A stretch of DNA of 64,000 bases, taken from the NCBI GenBank assembly GCA_016928155.1, contig JAFGLG010000007.1, forward strand, positions 58,973 to 122,972, given 5' to 3'. A program made the translations under genes and the position numbers. The DNA comes from Candidatus Woesearchaeota archaeon (GTDB lineage Archaea; Nanobdellota; Nanobdellia; Woesearchaeales; JAFGLG01). Each line of letters begins with the position of its first letter. Within the stretch, counting starts at the first letter, position 1. Below the pieces are notes generated by a model. The model made no database searches, was not told the DNA's origin, and was given only the letters and a program-made list of their open reading frames with translations. This document shows, piece by piece, positions 1-45,845 of the stretch.

Positions 1-473
1 AATATCAGCAGCCATGTGAAGCCCAGGCCGAGACCTTTGAGATAATAAACAGGCTCAGAGAATATCTGCTTCAGGGCAGATATAAGTCTATCAAGGAATG
101 CCTGCCTGTGCCCACCTGCATGAGATGTCATCCTGGATGCAAATGTGATCTTAGATGCTGAGGTTATCAGAAGAAATGATATCACAAGAGAATAAATGGC
201 CAGCAGGATACCATACATCACGATCTTTGATGCAACATCCTTTATCTGCTTCTCGATGGAATTTATGAGGGCAATGTTCTGGGAGGAGACAGCCTGGGCA
301 ATGTCCACTGTAGCCACTTTCTGCACCATATGGTCTATGGCCTGGCTTGTCGTCGATATGCCAAACCTGAAAAGCGCAAAGAATGCGATGAAGAGAAGGA
401 CAACAAACAAGGCCCTGGCAGGATCGATCCTGAATGATCCCAGGAAATCCCCCACAACTCTTTTATGCCTCAT
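1..473 (-). CDS. membrane protein, partial (C-terminus runs off the left edge)
   Basis: Minus-strand reading frame is open from ATG at 473 to position 1 (MRHKRVVGDFLGSFRIDPARALFVVLLFIAFFALF...) with two hydrophobic segments. TATA-like ATTTAAATA lies about 25 nt upstream. It is absent from the ORF track because it has no in-window stop. Confidence 0.5.
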   Translation of the reverse strand, partial: MRHKRVVGDFLGSFRIDPARALFVVLLFIAFFALFRFGISTTSQAIDHMVQKVATVDIAQAVSSQNIALINSIEKQIKDVASKIVMYGILLAIYSLVISFLLITSASKITFASRMTSHAGGHRQAFLDRLISALKQIFSEPVYYLKGLGLGFTWLLI

Positions 474-6272: not shown

Positions 6273-6650
6273 ATGAAACCAATAAAATCCAAAGAATTTC
6301 CGGATAATCAGACATCAGGATCCCTGACATGCCCAATATGCAGAAAAGGGAAGCTGACAAAAGGAAAATCAAAGGAATACCTCTATGGGGTGTATCTCGG
6401 CGAATATGATGCACAGATATGCACTGTGTGCCATGAGATATTCCTCAACGAAGAATCTGTCAAGAAGATAGAGAAAAAAGCAAAGGAGAAAGGCATCTGG
6501 GGATTGGGCAAGAAGACCAAGATAACAAAATCAGGCAATTCAATAGCGATAAGGATATCAAAGGAACTGGCAGACTATCTCAAGCTTGAAGTCGGCAGGG
6601 AGGCATTCATACATCCTGAGAATAAAAGGATAATCATTGAGCCATTATGA
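6273..6650 (+). CDS. Zn-ribbon (MqsA/YgiT-like) plus AbrB/SpoVT-domain putative antitoxin
   Basis: CPICRKGKL...CTVCHEIF zinc ribbon followed by C-terminal ITKSGNSIAIRISKELADYLKLEVG, a swapped-hairpin AbrB-like motif. Confidence 0.55.
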   Translation: MKPIKSKEFPDNQTSGSLTCPICRKGKLTKGKSKEYLYGVYLGEYDAQICTVCHEIFLNEESVKKIEKKAKEKGIWGLGKKTKITKSGNSIAIRISKELADYLKLEVGREAFIHPENKRIIIEPL

Positions 6651-6653
6651 GAT

Positions 6654-7019
6654 TCAGATGAGGATGACATCAAGATCCTTGATCCTTGAGAAATGCCTGT
6701 CACAGGTCATGATAGGGATCTTGTGATTGATGCAGGTTGCTGCAAGGAAGATGTCCAGCTTGCCGGTCGGTTTGCCTTTCATATAAAGTGAAGCTTCCAA
6801 GTCTGCACTCTTGATTGCTGTCTCCTTGTCAAAAGGCAGGACTTCAACTGAGTTGATGAATCCCTTGATGAGCTCTTTCTGCTTTATGCAGACGAGAAGC
6901 TCATTGACTGTGATGGAGCTGACTGCAAAGGCCTTAGACTCCAGATGATCCCTTATCGCAGCACCTTTCTCTGTACCTGCCAATAATTCGATGACTGCAG
7001 AGGTGTCAAGCAGAATCAT
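6654..7019 (-). CDS. vapC: PIN-domain toxin VapC
   Basis: MILLDTSAVIELL start, conserved acidic positions and a C-terminal MTCDRHF motif. It overlaps the upstream antitoxin by 14 nt. Confidence 0.85.
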   Translation of the reverse strand: MILLDTSAVIELLAGTEKGAAIRDHLESKAFAVSSITVNELLVCIKQKELIKGFINSVEVLPFDKETAIKSADLEASLYMKGKPTGKLDIFLAATCINHKIPIMTCDRHFSRIKDLDVILI

Positions 7020-7242
7020 GATGCCTCCTGAATTCCTTCTCGATATCAGACCTTCTGGCTTTGATCTTTGATTTCAATTCCTTAAGATCAATATCTTTCA
7101 GTATGCCGAAGAACCTGTCAGCTGAAGGCGTCCTGCTCTTCGAGATTCTCAGGATGGCCTTGCTGAAGCTCTCATCACCATGCTTCATGCTCTTCAATGC
7201 ATTGTAAGCCTCTTCAGTTATTGTCAATGATTTTATTGCCAT
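7006..7242 (-). CDS. vapB: VapB-type antitoxin
   Basis: 78 aa. MAIKSLTITEEAYNALKSMKHGDESFSKAI is typical of archaeal VapB partners. It is translationally coupled to vapC. Confidence 0.7.
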   Translation of the reverse strand: MAIKSLTITEEAYNALKSMKHGDESFSKAILRISKSRTPSADRFFGILKDIDLKELKSKIKARRSDIEKEFRRHHDSA

Positions 7243-20674: not shown

Positions 20675-21214
20675 ATGAACAAAGAAAAAGAACATGGAAA
20701 GGAACATGGAAAAGAGCATGAAAAGAAGTATGAAAAGGAGCATGAAAAAAAACAAGCGCCGGACCATGCTGAATGCAACCAGAAGATAGGAGAGCTGACA
20801 CAGGATCTCCAGAGGCTGCAGGCAGAGTTCGAGAACTACAAGAAAAGATGCGACAAGGACAACCAGAGGGAAATAATGAAAGGCCTCGGGGGATTTGTTG
20901 CAAAATTGCTGCCTATCATAGACAGTCTTGAGATAGCAAGGAGAGACTCAGATGGGATAAATCTCATCTATGCACAATTATACTCAATGCTGGAGAAGGA
21001 AGGGCTGAAGAGAATACCCACAGAGAAATTCAATCCATACATGCATGAAGTCATGATGACAGAGGAGACAGAGAATCCAGACGAGGACCATAAGATAATA
21101 GAAGTGTTCCAGACAGGATATATGCTGAGGGACATGATATTAAGGCCAGCAAGAGTCAAGATACGGAAACATGTTCGACCAAACCAGGATCAAGGGCAAA
21201 CCCAAGATAGATGA
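20675..21214 (+). CDS. grpE: nucleotide exchange factor GrpE
   Basis: LQRLQAEFENYKKR...LLPIIDSLEIA...FNPYMHEVMM...GYMLRDMILRPARVKI. Confidence 0.9.
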   Translation: MNKEKEHGKEHGKEHEKKYEKEHEKKQAPDHAECNQKIGELTQDLQRLQAEFENYKKRCDKDNQREIMKGLGGFVAKLLPIIDSLEIARRDSDGINLIYAQLYSMLEKEGLKRIPTEKFNPYMHEVMMTEETENPDEDHKIIEVFQTGYMLRDMILRPARVKIRKHVRPNQDQGQTQDR

Positions 21215-21731
21215 AGAGAAAATCAGGATAACAAGAAAAACCCCTGAAAAAGATATGCTCAGGTATGGAGACTATGACTGCCACGGATGCACACACTGCT
21301 GCGAATACGGAGGAGGCATAGTGCTGGAGCATGAGATCGAGCCCATGGCAAAGAGGCTCAGGATCACAAAAGAGGAATTCAGGAAAGAATACCTCGACGA
21401 GATAGAGAGATTCAACAAGAAAGTGTGGAAGTTCAAGGTCAAGAGCAGGAAAGGACTTCCATTCGGCTCCTGTGTATTCCTGGAAAAGGGATGCAAGATA
21501 CACGATGTGAAGCCACTGTACTGCAGGATAACGACCTGCGGAAAGCTGGCAAGGAAACAGCTGCTCTGGTTTGACATCAACCATCTTGTAGAGCCGACAG
21601 ACCCAGAGGCCATAAGGCAATGGGCGCAGTATCTCCAATACGGGGAGCTCATAGAAGGCGGGGAATTGGAAGAATTGGTGCCTGACAAGGAGAGGCTGAA
21701 GAAAATACTGAGCTATGAGATATTCAAATAA
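21171..21731 (+). CDS. YkgJ-family (UPF0153) cysteine-cluster protein
   Basis: CHGCTHCC plus GSCVFLEKGCKIHDVKPLYCRITTC. It overlaps the grpE 3-prime end. Confidence 0.7.
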   Translation: MFDQTRIKGKPKIDEEKIRITRKTPEKDMLRYGDYDCHGCTHCCEYGGGIVLEHEIEPMAKRLRITKEEFRKEYLDEIERFNKKVWKFKVKSRKGLPFGSCVFLEKGCKIHDVKPLYCRITTCGKLARKQLLWFDINHLVEPTDPEAIRQWAQYLQYGELIEGGELEELVPDKERLKKILSYEIFK

Positions 21732-21755
21732 GATGCATAAGATGAAGGTGATAAG

Positions 21756-22085
21756 ATGAAGATCCAGGTCGAAAGCGAGCAGAAAAGAAAAATATTCCTC
21801 AGACCAGACATGATACTCAAATACCTGATAACAGAAAATGACGAGCTCAACACACTGATAATGTGCGGAAATGCCGAGATAGACTTCAGGATGAGCGACC
21901 AAGGGCTCTACGAAGCGCTCGGGTCGATAAAAGAATATGACGGGTTCAGGCATCCCAAGCTCACAAAGCTGCTCGAGGTAGCTGAGATCATGCCATTCTC
22001 GAAGATGGCCGGGCAGCCCAGGCACATACTCACAGAGGATAAAGTGGAAGAACTGAGGGCAAAAGCCCTCAAGGAAGGTGAATAA
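21756..22085 (+). CDS. hypothetical protein
   Basis: 109-aa ORF inside the chaperone operon, with SD GAAGGTGA. Confidence 0.55.
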   Translation: MKIQVESEQKRKIFLRPDMILKYLITENDELNTLIMCGNAEIDFRMSDQGLYEALGSIKEYDGFRHPKLTKLLEVAEIMPFSKMAGQPRHILTEDKVEELRAKALKEGE

Positions 22086-22087
22086 AG

Positions 22088-22432
22088 ATGGAAAAGAAGA
22101 TAAATCTCACAATAAACGAAGGCGAGGCATTCTTTGCCCATGAGCTCAGTGTGAATTTCAACCCGCTCCAGTTCATGCTCGACTTCAAATGCATAACACC
22201 AAGGATAGACCCGAGGATGAGGGAGAGCATGCAAATGCACATAAAGCACAATGTCATAATGCTCGACCCATACCACCTCAAGCAGATCCTGCCCATGATG
22301 CAGGACTCGCTGCAGAGATATGAGAAGGAATTCGGGAAGATAGAGAAGCCGAAAAGCCTCAAGAAGATGGACAAGAAGCAGACAAAGAAAGAAGATGGCA
22401 CAATAGAAGCAGTGCCGACATATCTAGGGTGA
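22088..22432 (+). CDS. DUF3467-like protein
   Basis: [25 protein letters not shown]...[30 protein letters not shown] follows the DUF3467 pattern as I recall it. Confidence 0.55.
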
Positions 22433-22437
22433 TGAAC

Positions 22438-24306
22438 ATGGCAAAAATCATAGGAATAGATCTAGGAACAAGCAACTCAGCAGCAAGCGTACTTGAGGCA
22501 GGAAGGCCTAAGATAGTGCCCAGCTCAGAAGGGACAAGCATGTACGGGAAGGCATTCCCGAGCGTAGTGGCATTCACAAAAGACGGGCAGATGCTTGTCG
22601 GCGAGCCGGCAAGAAGACAGGCAGTCTCGAATCCGGAAGGCACCATCATGGGAGCAAAGAGGAAAATGGGGACGAGCCACAAGTACAATATCCACGGGAA
22701 GCAGCACACACCCCAGCAGATAAGCGCATACATACTGCAGAAGATAAAGAAAGACGCAGAGGAATTCCTGGGAGAGAAAGTGGACAAGGCAGTGATCACA
22801 GTCCCGGCCTATTTCGACGATAACCAGAGGCAGGCGACAAAGGATGCAGGAGCGATAGCAGGCTTGGAAGTCGTCAGGATAATCAACGAGCCCACAGCAG
22901 CAAGCCTGGCATTCGGCATAGACAAGAAAGAGAAGGACCAGAAGATACTAGTATTCGACCTTGGCGGCGGCACGCTTGATGTGACAGTCATGGAGTTCGG
23001 CGACGGGGTCTTCGAGGTCAAGTCGACATCAGGAGACACGCAGCTCGGCGGGCAGGACATGGATGAGGCGATAATAAAATTCATAGTCGATGACTTCAAA
23101 CAGAAAGAGAGAGCTGACCTGAGCAAGGACACTGTAGCGATGCAGAGGGTGAGAGAGGCAGCAGAGAAGGCAAAGATAGAGCTCAGCACAACACTGGACA
23201 CAGACATAAACCTGCCATACATCACAGCAGACCAGAGCGGGCCAAAGCACCTTGTGATGAAGATGAACAGGGCAAAGCTCGAGGAGCTGATAGACCCGAT
23301 AGTCAAGAAATGCAAGGGCCCCCTGGAGCAGGCGCTGAGGGATGCAAAGCTCACAAAGAATGACATAAGCAGGATAATCCTCGTCGGAGGACCGACAAGG
23401 ATGCCTATAGTCAGGGCATTTGTCGAGAACATAATCGGGAAGCAGGCAGAGAGAGGGGTCGATCCCATGGAGTGCGTAGCGATGGGAGCAGCGATCCAGG
23501 GAGGCGTGCTTGCAGGCGAAGTGAAGGATGTTCTATTGCTGGATGTGACCCCGCTTTCGCTCGGGATAGAGACGCTGGGCGGGATATTCACAAAACTGAT
23601 CGAGAGGAATACCACAATCCCCACAAAGAAGAGCCAGGTATTCAGCACAGCAGCTGACAACCAGCCCGCAGTCACAATCAGGGTGTTCCAGGGAGAGAGG
23701 CCAATGGCAAACCACAACAAGCTTCTTGGGCAATTCGACCTTGTGGGCATACCGCCTGCTCCAAGAGGGATACCTCAGATCGAGGTGACATTCGACATCG
23801 ATGCCAACGGCATAGTCAATGTCAATGCAAAAGACAAAGGGACTGGCAAGGAACAGAAGATAACGATAACAGCCACCCAGAAGCTCAGCGACGAAGAGAT
23901 TGAGAAGATGAAGAAGGATGCAGAGGCGCATTCGGACGAGGACAAGAAAAGGAAAGAAGAGATAGAGACCATAAACAACGCAGACACTCTTGTCTATTCT
24001 ACTGAGAAGATGCTTGAAGAGCTGAAAGGAAAGTATGATGAATCAAAGATCAAGGATATAAAGGACAGGATAGCAGAGCTGAAGAAGCTTCTTGAGCCAG
24101 AGAAGAAAGATGTCGGAGCGGTCAAATCCAAAGTGGATGAGATCAACAAGATAGTGCAGGAAGCATCTACTGAACTATACAAGCAGGCAGCTGCAGCCCA
24201 AGAGGCACAGGCTCAGGCAGGAGCACAGGGGCAGGAAAAGGCAAAAGGCCCAGATGAGAAGACAGTGGATGCAGAATACACAACAGAAGACGACAAGAAG
24301 AAATGA
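22438..24306 (+). CDS. dnaK: chaperone DnaK (Hsp70)
   Basis: [31 protein letters not shown] and other canonical Hsp70 motifs are present throughout. Confidence 0.97.
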
Positions 24307-24315
24307 AGTGACCTG

Positions 24316-24885
24316 ATGAAAGAGACAGAGACAAAATTCCAGCTTCAGGATCCTGGAGCGATGAGGCAGAAACTGCTGAGCATAGGATTCAAGAGCAAGG
24401 GAAGGCATCTCCAGGTCAACAGAAAATTCAATGACAAGGATGACAATTTCGGGCCGCACAAGGGCAGGCTGTTAAGGATAAGGGTGGCGGACAAGTGCAC
24501 GCTCACATCCAAGGCCGGCAAAAGCGTGGAGAAAAACATAAAGACCCTAGACGAATACGAGACAGAGATATCAGACCCTGAAAAGACTGAAAAGATACTG
24601 AACATGCTCGGATTCCACCTGGATGAGGTAATGGAGAAATACCGTGAGGCTTTCCAGAAAAGAGATGTCGAGGTGGTGATAGATGAAGTCCCATTTCTAG
24701 GTGCATGGATGGAGATAGAAGGGGATCATGAATCCATAGAGAGGACAGCAGAAGAGCTGGGCCTTGACATGAAAGACGCCATAAGCAGCAGCTACGGGAC
24801 ATTATGGAGAGGATACAAGGAAAAGCACAAGATTGATATAAGGGACTGCACCTTCGGGGAGAACCATGGCCAAAGACTACTATGA
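24316..24885 (+). CDS. CYTH-domain protein (CyaB-type class IV adenylate cyclase / triphosphatase family)
   Basis: N-terminal ETETKF (ExExK), LLRIRV, YETEI and EVVIDEVPFLGAWMEIEG follow the CYTH beta-barrel pattern. Confidence 0.7.
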   Translation: MKETETKFQLQDPGAMRQKLLSIGFKSKGRHLQVNRKFNDKDDNFGPHKGRLLRIRVADKCTLTSKAGKSVEKNIKTLDEYETEISDPEKTEKILNMLGFHLDEVMEKYREAFQKRDVEVVIDEVPFLGAWMEIEGDHESIERTAEELGLDMKDAISSSYGTLWRGYKEKHKIDIRDCTFGENHGQRLL

Positions 24886-25978
24886 GACACTCGGTGTGAG
24901 CAAGAAAGCGACCCGTGAAGAGATAAAATCCGCATATAAGAAGCTGGCGAAGAAATACCATCCTGATGTCAGCAAGGAGCCGGATGCGGCTGAGAAGTTC
25001 AAGGAGATCAACGAGGCAGCTGCAGTGCTCGGCGATGACCAGAAAAGACAGCAGTATGACCAGTTCGGCACAGCAGACACAAGCGGCTTTGACTTCTCTG
25101 GATTCGAGAGCGCGTTCAGGGGATTCGGCGGATTCGACTTCGACTCCATATTCGATTCATTCTTCGGCGGAGGATTCGGAAGAAGAGAAAGAGGGCCGAG
25201 AAGAGGATCTGACCTGCTCTATACAATGGAGATCAGCCTGGAAGATGCTTTCAACGGGACAGAGAAGACGATAATCATCCCAAAGACAGAGACCTGCACA
25301 AAATGCAACGGCTCAGGAGCAGAATCAGATGCGGACATCGAGACGTGCAACACGTGCAATGGCACAGGGATGGTCAGAAGGACAAGAAGGACCCCATTCG
25401 GCATATTCTCAACAAGCTCAGCGTGCGACAGATGCAGAGGGGAAGGCAGGACCATTAAGAGATACTGCCCTGTCTGCGACGGCAATGGAATTGTCAATAA
25501 AACCAAGAAGATAAATGTCAAGATACCTCAAGGGATCGACAGCGGGAACAGGCTCAGGGTTGCCGGAGAAGGAGAGGCAGGAGAGAAGGGAGGACCACCA
25601 GGCCATCTTTATGTCGAGGTGCATGTCAAGGAGCATAAGCTCTTCGAAAGGAAAGATGATGACCTCTACACAGAAATACCAATAAGCTTTGTCACAGCAG
25701 CTCTTGGAGGGGAGACCCATGTCGATTCATTCACTGGAAAAGTCACGATGAAGATACCTGCCGGAACCCAGAGCCACACATTGTTCAAGGTGAAGGATAA
25801 GGGTATGCCAAGGCTGCAGAGAGGAGGGCACGGGAACCTTCTCGTGAGAACGATGATACAGACACCTACAAAGCTCACTGTCAAGCAGAAAGAGCTCCTC
25901 AAGAAATATGCAGAGGCAGGCGGGGACAAGGTGCAGGAGAAGAAGTTCTTCGACAAGCTCAAGGATGCATTCTCATGA
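24866..25978 (+). CDS. dnaJ: co-chaperone DnaJ
   Basis: J-domain DYYETLGV...KKYHPD, a G/F region, and four CxxCxGxG zinc-finger repeats. Confidence 0.95.
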   Translation: MAKDYYETLGVSKKATREEIKSAYKKLAKKYHPDVSKEPDAAEKFKEINEAAAVLGDDQKRQQYDQFGTADTSGFDFSGFESAFRGFGGFDFDSIFDSFFGGGFGRRERGPRRGSDLLYTMEISLEDAFNGTEKTIIIPKTETCTKCNGSGAESDADIETCNTCNGTGMVRRTRRTPFGIFSTSSACDRCRGEGRTIKRYCPVCDGNGIVNKTKKINVKIPQGIDSGNRLRVAGEGEAGEKGGPPGHLYVEVHVKEHKLFERKDDDLYTEIPISFVTAALGGETHVDSFTGKVTMKIPAGTQSHTLFKVKDKGMPRLQRGGHGNLLVRTMIQTPTKLTVKQKELLKKYAEAGGDKVQEKKFFDKLKDAFS

Positions 25979-27001: not shown

Positions 27002-28411
27002 ATGATTGATATGTGGAACATGAGAAAAACAAGACTGGAAGAACGGATAAAGGAATTAGAGGCAGAAGCAGCCAGACATGAAACCATGATCGGTGCATCA
27101 GCCGAGATAAGGAAAGCCTTGAACGCAGATGATGAACTTATGCCAAGGCTTGATGCAGTCCTTGACATACTCAGGGAATTCTACGGCCAAAACACACAGC
27201 TAGGCATAATGCTGATGGATGAGGGAGGCCAGAGACTCAAGCTGATGAACTACAGAGGGGAACATCATCCATCGCTCGACGGGCTTGTCGTAGAGGTCGG
27301 AAAGGGCATAAGCGGCGCAGCAGCCCGTGAAAAAAGGACAATCAATGCCCCTGATGTCAGGTCACTGGGGTGGAAGAATATCTACATCGGGCCTGAAAGC
27401 ACAAGGTCAGAGATGGCGATACCCCTGATCTTCGAGGAGCATGTCTATGGCGTGCTTAATGCAGAGAGGCATGAGACAGATGCATTCACAGAACAAGACG
27501 AGGGCATGCTACAGATGATCGCAGATTCCATAGCGCCGGTACTGGCAAACAGCTTCTGGAAGAATTCAAAAAGATATGACTCAATGACCGGAGTCTACAG
27601 CTCAGATTACATAAGGACCCTGCTGGCATATACTTCAGGGGACAGACCAGAGAAAGCCACAAAAATACTCGAAAGCAGCCACATTGGCAGCCTGTGCTCA
27701 TCTGATGAGATCATTGTCGGGATATATGACCTTGATTACCTCAAGACCATAAACGACAGCACAGAGGACCACGCAATAGGGGACCAAAGGCTCACTGCAA
27801 TCGCGCACATACTCAGGGATGCTGTCGGAGACAAGGGGCTTGTAGCAAGATACGGCGGAGATGAGTTTGTCGTCGTGATGTTCGACACGAATGCAAAGGA
27901 GTATGAAGGGATACAGGCGACAATAGACAAGAGGATCAAGAGATGGAATGATGATTATAAGGCAAAGATAGCAGAAGGGAGCGAAGCAGACCTGCTGCCA
28001 GACCTCAGCGTATCAAAGGGGTATGTCCAGATCTCAAGATACAATGATGTGACAAGAGGGCTTGAGAAGGCAGACAAGATTCTCTATGAAGAGAAGAACA
28101 GGAGAGCGACAGAAGTGGCCCTGATAGAGATACCAGGACTTTCTGACGGAAGATACACGCCCGAGCAGGTATATGATATTGAACAGGAAATCATGAAATC
28201 GATCAATGGAGACGGATGGGCGCAGAGATTCGGGTCATTGATACAGGTGGGCATGGTCACAAACCCTGACAAGATAAGGAATAAACTTCAGGGGACCCAT
28301 GGAAGATTCAGGCTGCCTGATGGTTCGCAGCTGCAAGAGCCGCAATATTTTGAGCTCATCAGAATGAAAAAGAACGGAAATGGCCATGGGCCGAATGGCA
28401 CATCAGGCTGA
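27002..28411 (+). CDS. GAF-GGDEF protein (diguanylate-cyclase-like)
   Basis: N-terminal coiled coil. GAF core: GISGAAAREKRTINAPDV...EMAIPLIFEEHVYGVLNAE. GGDEF domain: DSMTGVY...IYDLDYLKTIND...GDQRLTAIAHIL...ARYGGDEFVVVMF...LEKADKILYEEKNRR. Confidence 0.85.
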   Translation: MIDMWNMRKTRLEERIKELEAEAARHETMIGASAEIRKALNADDELMPRLDAVLDILREFYGQNTQLGIMLMDEGGQRLKLMNYRGEHHPSLDGLVVEVGKGISGAAAREKRTINAPDVRSLGWKNIYIGPESTRSEMAIPLIFEEHVYGVLNAERHETDAFTEQDEGMLQMIADSIAPVLANSFWKNSKRYDSMTGVYSSDYIRTLLAYTSGDRPEKATKILESSHIGSLCSSDEIIVGIYDLDYLKTINDSTEDHAIGDQRLTAIAHILRDAVGDKGLVARYGGDEFVVVMFDTNAKEYEGIQATIDKRIKRWNDDYKAKIAEGSEADLLPDLSVSKGYVQISRYNDVTRGLEKADKILYEEKNRRATEVALIEIPGLSDGRYTPEQVYDIEQEIMKSINGDGWAQRFGSLIQVGMVTNPDKIRNKLQGTHGRFRLPDGSQLQEPQYFELIRMKKNGNGHGPNGTSG

Positions 28412-31522: not shown

Positions 31523-31764
31523 TTTGTCTGTCTTATCCATTTGTAGTATTATTTCTACTAAAACTCCCACCAACCAACCCCCACCGCTGCACCCAGCTAT
31601 GCGTCAAGCTATGCTGATTGCAGAAAAATTGCATGAGGTCAGGGCCAGTTCGCAGAGCGAACTGGATATATCAAAATATATCCTATGAAATTTTTACTGA
31701 TTGTAAAAGGATTAGGACAAAGGATGTATAAGAACCAGAAAAAAATAAGAAGTTATGACCAAAA

Positions 31765-31838
31765 ATGGCGATGCCGCGCAAATGGCAGCCCATTTGATAG
31801 GCTATTCAAGTGGGACTTTCGCTCTTGCTTCAGTCCCA
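31765..31838 (-). other. tRNA-linked module 3: conserved hairpin followed by an RNA end CATCGCCA and a T-run
   Basis: Minus strand: GTGGGACT-GAAGCAAGAGCGAA-AGTCCCAC-TTGAATA...GCGGCATCGCCA-TTTTT. The hairpin and TTGAATA are shared with 36139..36175. Confidence 0.35.
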
Positions 31839-31869
31839 CGGACTTTGTTAGCAGAAAAAAAGAAACAAA

Positions 31870-31994
31870 ATGGCGATGGCGGGATTCCCAATGATGCATT
31901 AATGTTCTGTTGCATCCTTTTGAGCCCGCGACTTCGCAGCAGCTGAGATGTCAGCTGGCACCATCGTGGGTTTCGACCTTTGGTCTCAAGCCCA
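31870..31994 (-). other. tRNA-linked module 2: hairpins fused to a copy of tRNA-Met positions from about 44 to the 3-prime end, including its T-loop intron
   Basis: The 3-prime 65 nt (31870..31934) matches tRNA-Met exon sequence except for one T/C difference beside the intron. The intron stem GATGC/GCATC is kept while the intron loop differs. Upstream are GGTGCCAGCTGAC and a GTGGG...CCCAC hairpin, and a T-run follows. Confidence 0.4.
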
Positions 31995-32011
31995 CATAAA
32001 AAAGAAAAGAA

Positions 32012-32169
32012 GTGGCGATGGCGGGATTCTCAATGATGCTAGCATTCTTTGCATCCTTTTGAGCCCGCGACTTCCAGATTTCTGTGCCAATATGATCTAT
32101 CATCGCTTTCGCTCAACACTCATAATTGACTTATGAGTCTGGCACTCTAACCAGGCTGAGTTACATCGC
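32012..32169 (-). tRNA. tRNA with CAT anticodon (elongator Met or Ile2) carrying two introns
   Basis: GGCGATG-TA-ACTC-AGCCTGGTTA-GAGT-G-CCAGA-CTCATAA-[about 52 nt intron]-TCTGG-AAGTC-GCGGG-[38 nt, T-loop plus about 31-nt intron]-CCCGC-CATCGCC-A. All stems are perfect. Confidence 0.8.
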
Positions 32170-32237
32170 CACAGCTGTCATAGCAGACAAACAAGGCTTT
32201 TATAAAGCTTTTGCCAGAATTGTATATAAAACAAAAA

Positions 32238-32483
32238 TCATATCTGAAGATCCTGCTCCAGAGTCTCTAATTCTGAGTCAAGGTCCATGTTTTCCAGGTC
32301 CTCAAGGTCCTTGTCAATATCACTGATATCAGTGTCCACTTCATCAATCTCTCCAGCCTGAGCATCCTGGCCAGTGATCTCATCACCTGCCTGATCACCA
32401 GTATCTGGAGCAGGCTTGGAACAGCCGCTTATGAATATCGCAAGCATCAATATCAATGCGACTGGGATTAATATCTTTTTCAT
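32238..32483 (-). CDS. small acidic lipoprotein
   Basis: MKKILIPVALILMLAIFISGC lipobox followed by an Asp/Glu-rich tail. Confidence 0.6.
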   Translation of the reverse strand: MKKILIPVALILMLAIFISGCSKPAPDTGDQAGDEITGQDAQAGEIDEVDTDISDIDKDLEDLENMDLDSELETLEQDLQI

Positions 32484-32575: not shown

Positions 32576-33886
32576 TCAAGCAGTACTGTTTGAATCATCT
32601 GTCTCATTGCTATCATCGCTGTCATCTTCGTCTGGGTCTTCGAGGTCCTCGCACTCTCCGTTGTCGCAGAACTTACCTGTTTCGCAGTCTGAGTCTGCGG
32701 TGCAAGCGTCATCTTCATCTGCCTCTTCATCATCCATGTCATCAGTCTCATTTTCTCCTGAGTCATCATCTGTCCCATTCACATCATCTGTATCAGCATC
32801 GTCTGAATCATCGTCTGTCTCGCTATCCATGTCCTCTGTCCCGTCATCTGCATCCTCCTCTTCATCCTCTGCTTCTACCTTGCCATTCTGGGATTTTATC
32901 TCCCTGACAAGCTCTTTAAGGATCTGATGGGCTTCCTTCAAATATCCATGAGACTCTTTCATCAAAGACTGGGCTTCCTTGATCAGATCAGCCGTTTCAT
33001 CAGCAGTCTTGACCTCATCCCACTTCTCTTTTGCAGCATCATACTTCTCCTGGGCTGCGTCAAGCTTTGCATTGAACTCATCAATCAGCTCCTCTGACCC
33101 GCTCATGTCATACCCTTTTTCTGTATACCTCTCAATAACGTCTTCCAGCCTCTTGCCTAGCTGATCAAGCTTTGTTATTATCTGACCTGCCTTCTCATTG
33201 GCAAGCTTACCAGCAGCGCGCTTCATGACCTTCTCAGTATTCTGCCAAGCATGCCTTATTGTCTTGGCTGCATCCTGGACATCTTCTGATGTGGCATTGT
33301 CGCCTGCTTCTTCTGCTGCATCCTTTGCAGCCTCTATCTCAGCGATCTTATCAGCAATATCATCGAGCATATCCTGCTTCTCATCATCTGAAAGATTCTG
33401 GTTGTCTGCAATCTGTGCCTCAAGCCTCTGCAGATTATTCAGGATAACATCAGAAGCCTGCACAAGGTATCTCTGGGCCTGGGCATTGAACTGGTTCCTT
33501 GCCTTCTGGCACTCAGGAGTGAGATCTCCCTCGGCATCATCCTGCCTGCAGTCAAGCCACTCCATCCTCTGCTTTGCAAGCAGGGCTTTCTGCTCCTGAT
33601 AATTGACCCTGATTACTTCCCTCTGCTGCTTAAGATGTATTATCCTCTCTTTCAGGTTCTCATTGACCTCTTTCAGCCTCTCATTCTGCTTCTTGAATCT
33701 CTTTACATCCAATAGAGGCCTATCATCTGTATCATTATCATCAGAATCAGCACTGCCATCATCCGAAGCATCATCATCATCGGCCAAATGGCCTGCTCCG
33801 GAATTCCCCTGCCTCTCAGCAAACGCAACCGGCATTATACCCAATATCATGATCATTGCCATGAAAACCGCATATGTCTTCTTCAT
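32576..33886 (-). CDS. secreted coiled-coil protein with acidic tail and C-terminal Cys motif
   Basis: Signal MKKTYAVFMAMIMILGIMPVAFA, long heptad-like helical regions, poly-Asp/Glu stretches, and CTADSDCETGKFCDNGEC near the C-terminus. Confidence 0.65.
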   Translation of the reverse strand: MKKTYAVFMAMIMILGIMPVAFAERQGNSGAGHLADDDDASDDGSADSDDNDTDDRPLLDVKRFKKQNERLKEVNENLKERIIHLKQQREVIRVNYQEQKALLAKQRMEWLDCRQDDAEGDLTPECQKARNQFNAQAQRYLVQASDVILNNLQRLEAQIADNQNLSDDEKQDMLDDIADKIAEIEAAKDAAEEAGDNATSEDVQDAAKTIRHAWQNTEKVMKRAAGKLANEKAGQIITKLDQLGKRLEDVIERYTEKGYDMSGSEELIDEFNAKLDAAQEKYDAAKEKWDEVKTADETADLIKEAQSLMKESHGYLKEAHQILKELVREIKSQNGKVEAEDEEEDADDGTEDMDSETDDDSDDADTDDVNGTDDDSGENETDDMDDEEADEDDACTADSDCETGKFCDNGECEDLEDPDEDDSDDSNETDDSNSTA

Positions 33887-36007: not shown

Positions 36008-36095
36008 AGAAAGATCGCATAATTCTTTAGGCATTAATGGATCTTGCGGCAATGGAAATCCTTGATCTCCTGATTGCATGTTCCCATGCTTGGCA

Positions 36096-36175
36096 TGGAC
36101 CCTGCGGGAGTCGCACAGCTGCAAAGTCAGCTGGCACCTTATTCAAGTGGGACTTGCACTTTGTTTCAGTCCCAC
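36096..36175 (-). other. tRNA-linked module at the Ala locus: conserved hairpins fused to an exact copy of the tRNA-Ala 3-prime end
   Basis: Minus strand: GTGGGACT-GAAACAAAGTGCA-AGTCCCAC-TTGAATA-A-GGTGCCAGCTGAC-TTTG-CAGCTG-TGCGACTCCCGCAGGGTCCA. The last 21 nt are identical to 36189..36209. Confidence 0.4.
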
Positions 36176-36188
36176 GGATTTCTTAATA

Positions 36189-36283
36189 TGGACCCTGCGG
36201 GAGTCGCACCCGCGGCCTCTTCCGTTCTCTGCCGTCTTCAGACCGGCTGCGAGGGAAGCGCTCTACTACTGAGCTAAGGGCCC
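36189..36283 (-). tRNA. tRNA-Ala(CGC) with a canonical-position intron of about 23 nt
   Basis: GGGCCCT-TA-GCTC-AGTAGTA-GAGC-G-CTTCC-CTCGCA[intron]-GGAAG-AGGCC-GCGGG-TGCGACT-CCCGC-AGGGTCC-A. The G3:U70 Ala identity pair is present. Confidence 0.85.
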
Positions 36284-36467
36284 TTCATTCCTCTGGCACA
36301 TGACTCAATATGGTCTTTGATGAACTTATATTTAAATGATATATACCCTAAATGCGATAGTTTTAAATAGTTTTTTCATATATCATCATATATCATCATA
36401 TGAAATAAGAAATGAGCCAACTGAAATATGGGGGTGAAAAAGATGAACAAGAAAATGATGAGGCTTA

Positions 36468-45275: not shown

Positions 45276-45390
45276 CGGCGTGGGCGGGACTTCCAAACTC
45301 AAGGGGTCAAGAGTATTTGAACCCGCATGGGACTTGGTGAATCCCACCGGAGCATCAGTCTGGCGCATTACCAGATTGTGCCACCACGCC
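45276..45390 (-). tRNA. tRNA with a 26-nt T-loop intron and an extra 19-nt hairpin in the variable region; isotype uncertain (GAU/Ile if folded canonically)
   Basis: GGCGTGG...CCACGCC acceptor. T-arm is GCGGG-TTCAAAT-[45289..45314 intron]-CCCGC. The anticodon arm CCAGA-CTGATGC-TCCGG has one A:C mismatch and G37. The hairpin is TGGGA-TTCACCAAG-TCCCA at 45328..45346. Confidence 0.6.
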
Positions 45391-45431
45391 ATTGCCTAAA
45401 AATTTATATATAAGGTAAGCTTATACAGATT

Positions 45432-45468
45432 GACTTGGTGAGTCTCACCGGGGTGAAAGCCACCACGG
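45432..45468 (-). other. partial tRNA-like copy upstream of the tRNA
   Basis: The minus-strand sequence CCGTGGTGGC-TTTCA-CCCCGGTGAGACTCACCAAGTC joins look-alikes of the tRNA 5-prime acceptor/D start (GCGTGGTGGC) and of its variable-region hairpin (TCCGGTGGGATTCACCAAGTC). Confidence 0.35.
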
Positions 45469-45845
45469 TTTTTTTTTTCTTTATTTGTATTATCAAAACA
45501 GTTTAATAAGCATAACTAAACAAGTATCAAATCTTCTTCAATGATTTCAGAAATCTTTCAATTCGACATAAATAATTTCGAAATCTTGTATTATAATCAG
45601 AAATCATTCAAATTTAATAAAAGCAATATTGCTGAAACGAACAATCTGATATCAAAATTCTAATAAAGAAATAATGCAGCCTTTTCCCAGAAAGGCTGCT
45701 GCTCACACTTCAATGAGCTGAAGAGGAGAGCTGATGTTGCCCAAGGACGGCATTCAAGTGATGACACTCTGTTATGGTGTGTGATTATTCCTTTTTTATA
45801 TTTTTTTGCATTAAGCAGGATGACGGATAATTAATCGAATTAAGC

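Follow-up and report, generated by a model that had tools for sequence, protein, structure and literature searches.

How archaeal tRNA genes become interrupted, split or decorated with fragments is an old question, the usual proposal being the integration of mobile elements, and to our knowledge the intermediate stages of such disruption are rarely seen. At the locus described here, a complete tRNA(CAT) gene with two introns is followed on the minus strand by two units (units 2 and 3), each composed of a hairpin-bearing module (Met-2 and Met-3) and a piece of the 3' end of the same tRNA (Table 1). A preliminary description had noticed this layout in the window (the whole stretch of 64 kb of DNA that was analysed) and offered three explanations for it without choosing among them, namely 3' pieces of split or trans-spliced tRNAs, footprints of mobile elements, or a family of tRNA-tailed small RNAs. 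All the features that it listed are present, although its coordinates lie one base too low throughout; among its explanations the mobile-element footprints fit best, whereas split-tRNA pieces are poorly supported. Moreover, the Met locus is identical at 715 of 715 positions in an independent Logan contig (L001, SRR13394437) and is therefore not an assembly artefact.

Table 1. Features of the Met, tRNA-Ala and tRNA(GAU)-like loci, in coordinates of the window
Feature	Coordinates	Strand	Basis
tRNA(CAT) gene, elongator Met or Ile2 type	32013..32170	-	Rfam tRNA, 43.2 bits (gathering score 29); ARAGORN on spliced form
tRNA(CAT) anticodon-loop intron, 52 nt, position 37/38	32080..32131	-	Rfam alignment, manual sequence reading
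tRNA(CAT) T-loop intron, 31 nt, position 59/60	32027..32057	-	Rfam alignment, sequence reading, ARAGORN
tRNA(CAT) trailer with T-run, CTTCTTTTCTTTTTTAT	31996..32012	-	sequence
Unit 2 (module Met-2 and tRNA piece)	31871..31995	-	sequence
Hairpin A of Met-2 (GTGGG...CCCAC)	31966..31995	-	covariance model R1, 39.5 bits
GGTGC and hairpin B of Met-2 (CAGCTGA CATC TCAGCTG)	31940..31962	-	folding, alignment
Copy of tRNA(CAT) positions 44-73 including T-loop intron, and 15-nt T-run trailer	31856..31935	-	repeat comparison
Unit 3 (module Met-3 and tRNA piece)	31766..31839	-	sequence
Hairpin A of Met-3 (GTGGGACT GAAGCAAGAGCGAA AGTCCCAC)	31810..31839	-	covariance model, 46.4 bits
Linker TTGAATAGCCTAT and hairpin B of Met-3 (CAAATGG GCTG CCATTTG)	31779..31809	-	three compensatory pairs versus the other two copies
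Met-3 tail CGCGGCATCGCCA, remnant of tRNA(CAT) 3' end, and TTTTT	31761..31778	-	repeat family D2
tRNA-Ala(CGC) gene, G3:U70, 23-nt anticodon-loop intron	36189..36283	-	Rfam tRNA, 56.2 bits; ARAGORN on spliced form
Ala module leader: TATTAAGAAATCC, hairpin A (36175->36147), TTGAATAAGGTGC, hairpin B (36133->36116)	36116..36188	-	covariance model, 50.7 bits
Copy of last 20 nt of tRNA-Ala (TGCGACTCCCGCAGGGTCCA) and one trailer base	36095..36115	-	sequence
Odd tRNA(GAU)-like gene	45276..45390	-	Rfam tRNA, only 19.5 bits
Hairpin-A relative in long-variable-arm position of tRNA(GAU)-like gene	45350->45331	-	31.2 bits
Second hairpin-A-like 20-mer (CCGGTGAGACTCACCAAGTC), upstream of tRNA(GAU)-like TATA box	45432..45451	-	16.9 bits

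The tRNA(CAT) gene spans 158 nt and leaves 75 nt once spliced. In its Rfam alignment the anticodon loop is extended by 54 inserted positions and the T-loop by 32, and after removal of introns of 52 and 31 nt ARAGORN calls a 75-nt tRNA-Met(CAT), in agreement with the two-intron gene first proposed. By manual reading, the anticodon-loop intron has a BHB-like form, with H1 CCAGA/UCUGG and H3 GUCAAU/AUUGGC on either side of a central helix CUCA/ACAG, where two of the four positions are paired, and 3-nt bulges UAA and AAA; a strict BHB scan passes over it. The T-loop intron corresponds to a relaxed BHB made of the T stem, CUCA/UGAG, the bulges AAA and AAU and the hairpin GAUGC/GCAUC.

In unit 2, the copied segment extends from position 44 in the variable loop to the discriminator, T-loop intron included, and is perfect over a stretch of 26 nt and 90% identical over one of 42 nt. 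A comparison of this copy with tRNA(CAT) places six of the seven differing columns within the intron loop, which takes up 14 columns (P = 6e-4 by column, 0.03 by event), which bears out the earlier impression that the copy is not the product of random decay, and the sole difference outside the loop, A/G in UUGAG/UUGGG, preserves the T-loop pairing. Also, the copy continues for 15 nt beyond the tRNA end, with 12 of these 15 identical, and the motif CCATTTT is common to the Met-3 tail and Met-2 but not to the tRNA itself. The T-runs were thus duplicated along with the tRNA end, being part of the duplicated segment and not independent features of the units, so that the initial view of each unit as having its own T-run terminator is misleading. 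T6/T7 runs separate tRNA(CAT) from both its modules.

The repeats of the Met locus are tandem-like, with a period of 139-142 nt, and unit 3 seems more eroded than unit 2, as if both were plain local duplications generated by slippage or unequal crossing-over and now decaying, with neither mobility nor function. Nonetheless, hairpin A agrees at only ~57% between Met-2 and Met-3 against 92% for the tRNA pieces, and a single tandem duplication therefore cannot explain the locus. Plain duplication is also at odds with the non-random placement of the differences and with the compensatory changes that keep the hairpins, and it is largely refuted by a third copy, located 4 kb away, where the same leader stands behind a different tRNA and carries the tail of that tRNA. 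Taken with the evidence from both loci, it is very unlikely.

In this third copy, behind tRNA-Ala(CGC), the leader is as in the Met modules (the hairpin GTGGGACT…AGTCCCAC, TTGAATA and a hairpin beginning GGTGCCAGCTGAC), and it ends in the last 20–22 nt of tRNA-Ala's own sequence, the identity block being 22 nt once the preceding G is counted. The modules are thus a family, in which a conserved two-hairpin leader is joined to the 3' end of the particular tRNA that it follows. In order, they consist of ~11 nt (TWAMRAARTCC), of hairpin A, whose outer stem of 8 bp (GTGGGACT/AGTCCCAC) is followed inwards by a G.A-rich internal loop and a short inner stem, of the linker TTGAATAR, of hairpin B (6-7 bp) and of the tRNA 3' copy. 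The length of this copy ranges from 12-13 nt in Met-3 through 20-22 nt in Ala to ~80 nt in Met-2. The upstream boundary of the repeat is variable, the fragments starting at ~66 in the acceptor strand (Met-3), at 54 in the T-loop (Ala) and at position 44 (Met-2). At the other side, the identity blocks all run to or past the tRNA 3' end (+4 nt in Met-3, +1 nt in Ala and +15 nt in Met-2). The inserts between the repeats are 62-92 bp long and hold the two hairpins, with 13-31 nt between the left junction and hairpin A and 0-5 nt between hairpin B and the right junction. Both targeted tRNAs end in CCA (n=2 cases).

The kinship among the three copies is mosaic. For example, hairpin A of Met-3 is that of Ala and not that of Met-2, TCCGTGGGACTGAA...AAGTCCCACTTGAATA being identical in Ala and Met-3 except for the loop, whereas hairpin B of Met-2 is that of Ala and not that of Met-3, with GGTGCCAGCTGAC identical in Ala and Met-2. 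Hairpins A and B are unrelated to each other. In Met-2, hairpin A has diverged in sequence and kept its fold, with an inner stem GACC/GGUC and a GA/GA internal loop. In hairpin B, three of the seven pairs have changed on both sides and none is broken by a one-sided change; 95% of cells are paired, versus 24-52% when the partners are slid, and a random 18-mer closes at least six Watson-Crick pairs with P = 2.4e-4. Compensatory changes have thus conserved the hairpin structure. A K-turn or a C/D-box was considered for hairpin A, and by manual reading the consensus geometry did not fit.

Hairpin-A relatives are not confined to the three modules. Within 87 kb of this genome there are five, each of which lies on the tRNA strand and in or within ~60 nt of one of three tRNA genes; the next match to the model has E = 0.23. 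The two additional copies belong to an odd tRNA(GAU)-like gene, which also has a 26-nt T-loop intron at 59/60; one sits inside the gene as an extra arm and the other, upstream, is identical to it at 18 of 20 positions. For this gene, a scrambled exon order was rejected, and a reading that combines the T-loop intron at 59/60 with a long extra arm is preferred. Traces of the hairpin family are therefore present on three of the four tRNA genes seen in the 87 kb, as two nested duplications behind tRNA(CAT), one duplication behind tRNA-Ala, and the copies within and upstream of the tRNA-like gene.

A conserved fold on the tRNA-sense strand could also mean that the modules function as structured RNAs, which would be produced as 3' trailers of tRNAs or by read-through, with the hairpins as a protein-binding or stabilising scaffold and the tail serving for processing, acceptor mimicry or guide pairing to the antisense strand of the tRNA gene. 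The compensatory changes agree with the tRNA-tailed small RNAs of the preliminary description, every copy lies on the tRNA-sense strand, and the folds of the three modules are more stable than those of shuffled sequences (z = -4.2, -3.3, -3.3). Moreover, the Ala module has a T-run on neither side, and since none separates it from tRNA-Ala the two are probably co-transcribed. Folding of unit 2 also allows a 7-bp acceptor-like stem that would leave a GCCA 3' end, but this stem is limited to unit 2 and was not found by folding in the Met-3 or Ala modules. The tail varies from 13 to ~80 nt, no Rfam 15 family fits the modules even at E <= 10, where only the tRNAs match, and the hairpins fold equally as DNA, with no G.U pair in the modules to mark a strand.

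The route to expression is a further difficulty for an RNA function, because the T6/T7 runs at tRNA(CAT) have no equivalent at the Ala locus and the copies would lack a common, consistent one. The tRNA promoters in this genome consist of TTTATAA-type boxes and a shared upstream element TTCTGGCAWAAGM, and TTCTGGCAWAAGMTTTATAA is common to the two CAT tRNAs (P = 0.0005). This tRNA-type promoter is absent from the modules, where only TTGAATAR or TTTTTTAT is found, and together with the missing T-run of the Ala module this makes autonomous genes unlikely. A homology between tRNA upstream regions and module leaders was rejected as not significant, for example TTGAGTCATGTGCCAG versus TTGAATAAGGTGCCAG (13/16, P ~0.06), the P value of such similarity being at least 0.06. 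A clustering of GTGCCAG is noted as a lead only. On balance, we consider a structured RNA unlikely, if still worth keeping in view.

Alternatively, the units could supply the 3' part of split or trans-spliced tRNAs, or serve as alternative 3' exons, with the 5' piece coming from another place in the genome, such as an isoacceptor. Like the split tRNA 3' halves of Nanoarchaeum equitans, the tri-split tRNAs of Caldivirga and the recently split ones of Desulfurococcales, they present a 3' fragment after a non-tRNA leader in a lineage of disrupted genes, the tRNA genes being here heavily disrupted through relaxed BHB motifs that include 59/60 T-loop introns. In Staphylothermus tRNA-Lys, which provides a precedent, one fragment and the corresponding 3' part of a complete tRNA are near-identical, as in this case (PMC3218864). 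At the Ala locus, hairpin B, UGCG, AC|U and CCCGC are laid out like the 3' part of bona fide T-loop introns, and by manual reading the UGCG is able to pair with its counterpart in the T-loop of the upstream gene, so that a BHB-like motif at 59/60 could use the distal piece. However, such a relaxed motif can be drawn for the Ala locus only, and the Met-3 tail is too short and its geometry wrong for a BHB. No motif bounds a module in the strict BHB scan, but this result carries little information, since the scan also misses the genuine introns, which are relaxed. In addition, the UGCG T-loop is seen in a distant relative that has no module; it is a lineage trait, and its self-complementarity is no adaptation to the module.

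The genomic setting also differs from that of split tRNAs. The modules have no promoter of their own, and their leader, conserved across different tRNAs, folds on itself and is not free to pair with a trailer. Intact tRNA(CAT) and tRNA-Ala(CGC) genes lie directly upstream, and a distal piece would yield the identical product, although an isoacceptor might need the fragment. ARAGORN calls no tRNA in unit 2, and a search for sequences that start with a matching 5' acceptor strand found none with tRNA features, and no 5' half, in 87 kb of this genome. Overall, a reading as split-tRNA pieces is very unlikely.

We give about an even chance to a reading in which small insertions bearing hairpins entered the 3' ends of tRNA genes and left the units behind as nested target duplications of the att type. 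In both loci a direct repeat of part of the tRNA flanks an insert, with the complete gene on one side and the partial copy on the other, and the identity block continues to or past the tRNA 3' end. In such an event, an element carrying its own tRNA 3' part would recombine with the tRNA gene, which would be rebuilt while the displaced 3' end remained beyond the insert. At tRNA(CAT), two nested insertions would have placed the oldest 3' end furthest downstream, and the CCATTTT that the Met-3 tail shares with Met-2 fits such a serial insertion beside the gene. The nearly exclusive location of the differences in the intron loop would be expected if one copy had been on the element and the other in the host, both selected for a working tRNA. 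Partial tRNA genes produced by element integration are well documented in Archaea (PMC9897764), and it has been proposed that attP/attB mismatches can be inherited, as can even an intron when the attP bears one (PMC3293823).

A comparison with the attL/attR scars of archaeal elements (SSV1, pNOB8-type plasmids and TKV/PYG1-type islands) shows the same tRNA 3' repeat flanking an insert, the intact gene beside it and an identity block that extends to the tRNA 3' end; such scars can also be nested or in tandem, and mismatches or an intron may be present in the copy borne by the element (PMC9897764, PMC3293823). On the other hand, the inserts of those elements are 2-25 kb long, compared with 62-92 bp here, where the insert consists of two structure-conserved hairpins with no integrase or fragment of one between the repeats, and the identity blocks vary from 13 to ~80 nt within one family. 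On this reading, the units would be a variant of integrative-element scars in which the insert is gene-less and has conserved hairpins. The modules are most likely footprints of mobile elements with tRNA genes as insertion sites, or miniature relatives of such elements, and not split-tRNA halves.

No integrase, transposase or other mobile-element gene is present among the ~40 ORFs across the window, and the ORFs overlapping the modules have no Pfam or PHROG match and no integrase remnant. Neither a module nor a junction with a tRNA piece has a copy in IMG/VR or in phage or plasmid collections, where blastn against phages and plasmids returns nothing and the 17-mer and 16-mer matches in IMG/VR sit within coding sequence, being chance matches. 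The hairpin-A pattern has no match in viral contigs and one in a metagenome contig (L021), rejected as chance because it has no tRNA and no GTGGG and ~1 match is expected by a rough estimate. An exact 38-mer of the tRNA 5' exon has no match in the genome contig collection, nor has a 21-mer of the T-arm and intron in metagenome contigs. A relative with an empty site close enough for comparison was not found in any collection searched, the source genome itself being absent there, so that the lack of a free element in these collections carries little weight. The search of genome contigs for related loci gave no relative. Among the neighboring genes, the 81-aa protein is found only on the identical Logan contig, none of 5.8 billion proteins is homologous to the 232-aa protein, and the PKD protein has its best homologue, at 32% identity, in Woesearchaeota-type organisms. 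The best homologues of the NAD(P)HX dehydratase are ~50% identical, two of their contigs looking bacterial by gene content (T2SS and SpoIID, for example). No synteny is seen on the contigs for P0002 and P0003.

If the modules originated by site-specific insertion at the DNA level, they would be either complete miniature non-autonomous elements that need their hairpins for mobility or the conserved att-proximal ends of larger elements otherwise deleted. The second version is strained, because it implausibly requires three independent deletions that each end only a few bases from hairpin A. The first requires the recombination of a unit of ~100-150 bp, and we know of no such case. Classical attP arms are recognised by sequence and do not explain the compensatory upkeep of the hairpins, which points to recognition of a structure, as single-stranded DNA or RNA, or to a function as RNA. 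It is possible, if doubtful, that the modules are complete structure-defined non-autonomous mobile units of ~100-150 nt, made of two hairpins and a replacement tRNA 3' end, that home to tRNA 3' ends (possibly CC-A), the hairpins being recognised as ssDNA or RNA by a trans-acting enzyme or the tail acting as a guide.

Small elements with a comparable organization are the IS200/IS605-derived PATEs, REP/BIME and integron attC sites, which likewise are non-coding and below 100 bp, keep their hairpin identity by compensatory change, and have a strand-specific orientation and a specific kind of insertion site. As in PATEs, the modules have subterminal hairpins near both ends and strand specificity. 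Nonetheless, those elements do not duplicate tens of target bases and the end hairpins of IS200/IS605 resemble each other, whereas here the duplications are long and hairpins A and B are unrelated; moreover, the window encodes no HUH transposase or integron integrase. Another comparison is offered by the transposed tRNA introns of Thermoproteales and by tRNA intron gain via mobile elements, where related short structured sequences also occur at different positions of different tRNA genes, as hairpin A does here inside one tRNA-like gene and beside three tRNA genes, and T-loop 59/60 introns are present, but the modules lie outside the mature tRNA and the strict scan finds no BHB that bounds them.

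Finally, fragments of this kind can mislead tRNA annotation. If the modules are RNAs, they would represent a new tRNA-linked family. If they are mobile, we know of no smaller tRNA-targeting elements, and they would provide a directly testable model for the gain of fragments and introns. As complete structure-defined units, they would constitute a previously undescribed kind of miniature tRNA-targeting element, which may explain how archaeal tRNA genes gain fragments, introns and extra arms, the hairpin A within the tRNA(GAU)-like gene being one such event.

The preliminary description had placed a two-intron tRNA(CAT) on the minus strand, followed by two shorter units with tRNA-like ends, and all parts of this layout were found, although at positions one base higher than originally read. 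The tRNA matches the Rfam tRNA model over its full length with 43.2 bits (gathering score 29), showing two large insertions, one in the anticodon loop and one in the T-loop. The unspliced gene was missed by ARAGORN, as well as by the default Rfam filters, and the 75 nt that remain after removal of both introns are called tRNA-Met(CAT) by the former. Both introns can be drawn in a bulge-helix-bulge layout with imperfect central helices, being absent from the results of a strict scan for this motif. Also, the locus is identical over 715 nt in the independently assembled SRR13394437 contig, so the arrangement is not an assembly artefact.

Features of the two module-bearing tRNA loci and copies of hairpin A
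Feature	Position	Strand	Description
tRNA(CAT) gene	32170→32013	minus	Rfam tRNA end-to-end match
tRNA(CAT) intron 1	32131→32080	minus	52 nt, position 37/38
tRNA(CAT) intron 2	32057→32027	minus	31 nt, position 59/60
Unit 2 (module Met-2)	31995→31871	minus	repeats part of tRNA(CAT)
Unit 3 (module Met-3)	31839→31766	minus	follows unit 2
tRNA-Ala(CGC)	36283→36189	minus	Rfam 56.2 bits; G3:U70; 23-nt intron
Ala module, element 1			TATTAAGAAATCC, downstream of tRNA-Ala
Ala module, element 2			GTGGGACTGAAACAAAGTGCAAGTCCCAC
Ala module, element 3			TTGAATAAGGTGC
Ala module, element 4			CAGCTGACTTTGCAGCTG
Ala module, element 5			TGCGACTCCCGCAGGGTCCA, final 20 nt of tRNA-Ala itself
Hairpin A, copies 1-3			in the Met-2, Met-3 and Ala modules
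Hairpin A, copy 4	within tRNA(GAU)-like gene 45390→45276	minus	forms long extra arm
Hairpin A, copy 5	40-60 nt upstream of tRNA(GAU)-like gene		18/20 identical to copy 4

Met-2 repeats tRNA(CAT) from position 44 to the discriminator with the T-loop intron included, as a perfect block of 26 nt and a block of 42 nt at 90%. The copies differ in seven columns, six of them within the intron loop of 14 columns (P = 6e-4 counted by column; P = 0.03 with adjacent columns counted as one event), and the only change outside it still pairs with the T-loop. Moreover, the repeat does not stop at the tRNA end: 15 nt of the T-rich trailer are also copied, 12 of them identical, and CCATTTT is common to the Met-3 tail and Met-2 but not to the tRNA. 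This indicates that the T-runs were copied along with the tRNA end. The T-run credited to each unit as its own is thus part of the duplicated segment, and these runs are not evidence for the units as separate transcription units.

Four kilobases from tRNA(CAT), a related module follows tRNA-Ala(CGC). Its tail forms an identity block of 22 nt with tRNA-Ala, including one flanking base per side; its first hairpin and TTGAATA are the same as in Met-3 outside the hairpin loop, its GGTGCCAGCTGAC…CAGCTG matches Met-2, and the linker (13 nt) and hairpin B (18 nt) have the same length in Ala and Met-3. The modules are therefore a family, composed of a short lead-in, hairpin A, a linker, hairpin B and the 3′ end of the respective upstream tRNA. 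The finding holds and is larger than first reported, spanning at least two tRNA loci, and the shared module behind tRNA-Ala excludes a decaying duplicate of purely local origin.

In tRNA-Ala(CGC) itself, the T-loop (UGCGACU) is non-canonical and has G at position 55, and the D-loop (AGUAGUAG) is without the GG pair. The same traits (T-loop TGCGATT, D-loop AGTAGCAG) occur in the tRNA-Ala(CGC) of a distant relative (contig L022, 15502-15573, plus strand), which is intron-less and has no module, so the UGCG T-loop did not arrive with the module but is native. The odd elbow of this tRNA appears to be a trait of the lineage. Some 90 nt upstream of tRNA-Ala, immediately before its TATA-like box, there is a short tandem repeat, TATGATGATA TATGATGATA TATG (36371-36400, minus strand).

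Hairpin B of Met-3 (CAAATGG GCTG CCATTTG) aligns gap-free with that of Met-2 and Ala (CAGCTGA…), and in three of the seven pairs both bases have changed so that pairing is kept, with no pair disrupted on one side. Pairing in the alignment is 95%, against 24–52% with the partners slid, and the chance of a random 18-mer closing at least six Watson-Crick pairs is P = 2.4e-4. In hairpin A, Met-2 has only about 57% base identity with the other copies and retains both stems, outer and inner, as well as the internal loop with its G·A/A·G closure; the inner stem varies among modules (GC/GC, AC/GU, GACC/GGUC). The kinship is mosaic, Met-3 agreeing with Ala in hairpin A and Met-2 with Ala in hairpin B. 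These comparisons point to conservation of structure beyond sequence alone. Plain decay of a duplication, contradicted by both the compensatory changes and the Ala locus, is very unlikely. A segment of the tRNA(CAT) anticodon intron (32100-32118, minus strand; UUGA GC GAAA GC GAUGA) resembles the Met-3 hairpin-A core, GAA GC AAGA GC GAA, with which it shares the 9-mer GAGCGAAAG; by eye it is loosely K-loop-like (D′-like UUGA, C′-like GAUGA).

The covariation would also be accounted for if the modules were functional RNAs, structured, linked to tRNAs and ending in a tRNA-like tail. However, the two CAT tRNAs have the promoter region TTCTGGCAWAAGMTTTATAA in common (local alignment P = 0.0005) and other tRNAs carry TTTAAATA or TTATATA boxes, whereas the modules have nothing comparable, the similarity between tRNA-upstream regions and module leaders not being significant (P ≥ 0.06). 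Between tRNA(CAT) and its modules lie T6/T7 runs, but at tRNA-Ala there is no T-run between tRNA and module and none after the module. Hence, the modules have no expression route in common. The inconsistent terminators, absent promoters and variable tail length are left unexplained by a functional RNA, and no Rfam family matches the modules; we consider this reading rather unlikely.

The modules could instead be 3′ halves of split tRNAs or alternative 3′ exons, as there is precedent in Staphylothermus (PMC3218864) and hairpin B + UGCG + AC|U + CCCGC of the Ala module is laid out like the 3′ part of genuine 59/60 introns. Nonetheless, intact genes adjoin the modules, promoters are missing, the leader is self-folded and common to different modules, and 5′ halves, for which the preliminary description proposed a search, are absent from the 87 kb searched, all of which makes this origin highly improbable.

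An unfiltered search of the window and 23 kb of flanking contigs with a hairpin A covariance model returned no more than five copies, each on the sense strand of the tRNAs (next match E = 0.23). The tRNA(GAU)-like gene holding copy 4 is called tRNA-Ile by ARAGORN, with only 19.5 bits in Rfam, and becomes a cloverleaf only once a 26-nt T-loop intron at 59/60 is removed; the spliced form has a 20-nt extra arm related to hairpin A, G37 C38, and an anticodon stem with an A.C mismatch. The gene may be functional, a pseudogene or a tRNA into which a hairpin was inserted. Upstream (45425-45480, minus strand), CCGTGGTGGCTTTCACCCCGGTGAGACTCACCAAGTC is a repeat of 9 nt from the gene's 5′ acceptor strand and, at 18/20 nt, of its extra-arm region. 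A10 precedes this sequence, which reads on the plus strand as a hairpin followed by T10 and is either a partial 5′ duplicate or the terminator of the convergent gene.

Just past the right window edge, a second CAT tRNA-like gene (contig L020, 560-668, plus strand, equivalent to ~64400-64508) has no downstream module. Called by ARAGORN with no Rfam match at E <= 0.1, it has an irregular anticodon region, extra hairpins and a promoter region that hardly differs from the one of tRNA(CAT) at 32170. The 3′ end is CC-A in both module-bearing tRNAs and C-G in the two without a downstream module; with four genes only, this correlate serves just as a lead. The window has seven GTGCCAG heptamers, of which four belong to the two tRNA loci and lie on the tRNA strand (31955, 32139, 36131 and 36293, all minus): in the two modules, within tRNA(CAT) at positions 24-30, and in the leader of tRNA-Ala. 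The anticodon intron of tRNA(CAT) carries the complement, UUGGCAC, in its 3′ part.

The products of the ~40 window ORFs scanned are housekeeping and orphan proteins, strikingly acidic in many cases, and include no integrase, transposase or other protein of a mobile element. No Pfam or PHROG match was obtained for ORFs that overlap the modules, and nothing module-related was found in IMG/VR, phage or plasmid collections. The source appears to be a DPANN/Woesearchaeota-like archaeon that lacks close sequenced relatives: the best homologues of the PKD protein (named Woesearchaeota) are 32% identical, those of a conserved enzyme ~50%, and one neighbour protein is a complete orphan. Its genome is in neither the species-representative nor the JGI metagenome collections. 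Several neighbours have no homologue among 5.8 billion proteins. Extremely acidic predicted proteins with long D/E runs (32576-33886 and 32238-32483, minus strand, and the window in general) suggest a salt-in halophile. Weak C/D-box snoRNA matches at 32690-32820, inside an acidic-repeat coding region, are probably due to chance. A GAF-GGDEF (diguanylate-cyclase-type) gene (27002-28411, plus strand), of a type that to our knowledge is uncommon in Archaea, adjoins a GrpE-DnaK-DnaJ cluster (20675-25978). Toxin-antitoxin pairs occur toward the left window end (PIN/VapB; contig L019, 16152-16740, ~window 6650-7240) and just past the right end (ParE/MazE; L020, 1046-1548).

Site-specific integration into tRNA genes is the usual source of archaeal tRNA gene fragments (PMC9897764), and its signature is the arrangement seen here: an intact tRNA gene, an insert and a partial 3′-end copy reaching or passing the last base. 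Repeated insertion beside the gene would give the nested order at tRNA(CAT), and differences nearly confined to the intron loop would fit an element copy and a host copy that evolved apart, each selected for a working tRNA. For Caldiarchaeum, inheritance of mismatches between the recombination sites attP and attB, and of an intron from the attP copy, has been proposed (PMC3293823). Of the three origins first offered, DNA-level insertion is thus favoured over tRNA-linked small RNAs, ranked lower, and over split-tRNA pieces, which are highly improbable; we give it about an even chance. The whole case comprises one genome and five hairpin A copies, mobility, transcription and the enzyme being putative. 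Unlike classical scars, the insert spans only 62–92 bp with no gene, the left homology boundary hardly varies among independent copies, contrary to what random erosion of large elements would give, and the hairpins are kept by compensation, which suggests their structure-specific recognition. The modules may be either complete miniature elements or the conserved ends of larger ones. The modules would be best filed with tRNA-gene integration scars, as a variant, with a substantial chance that they represent something more novel.
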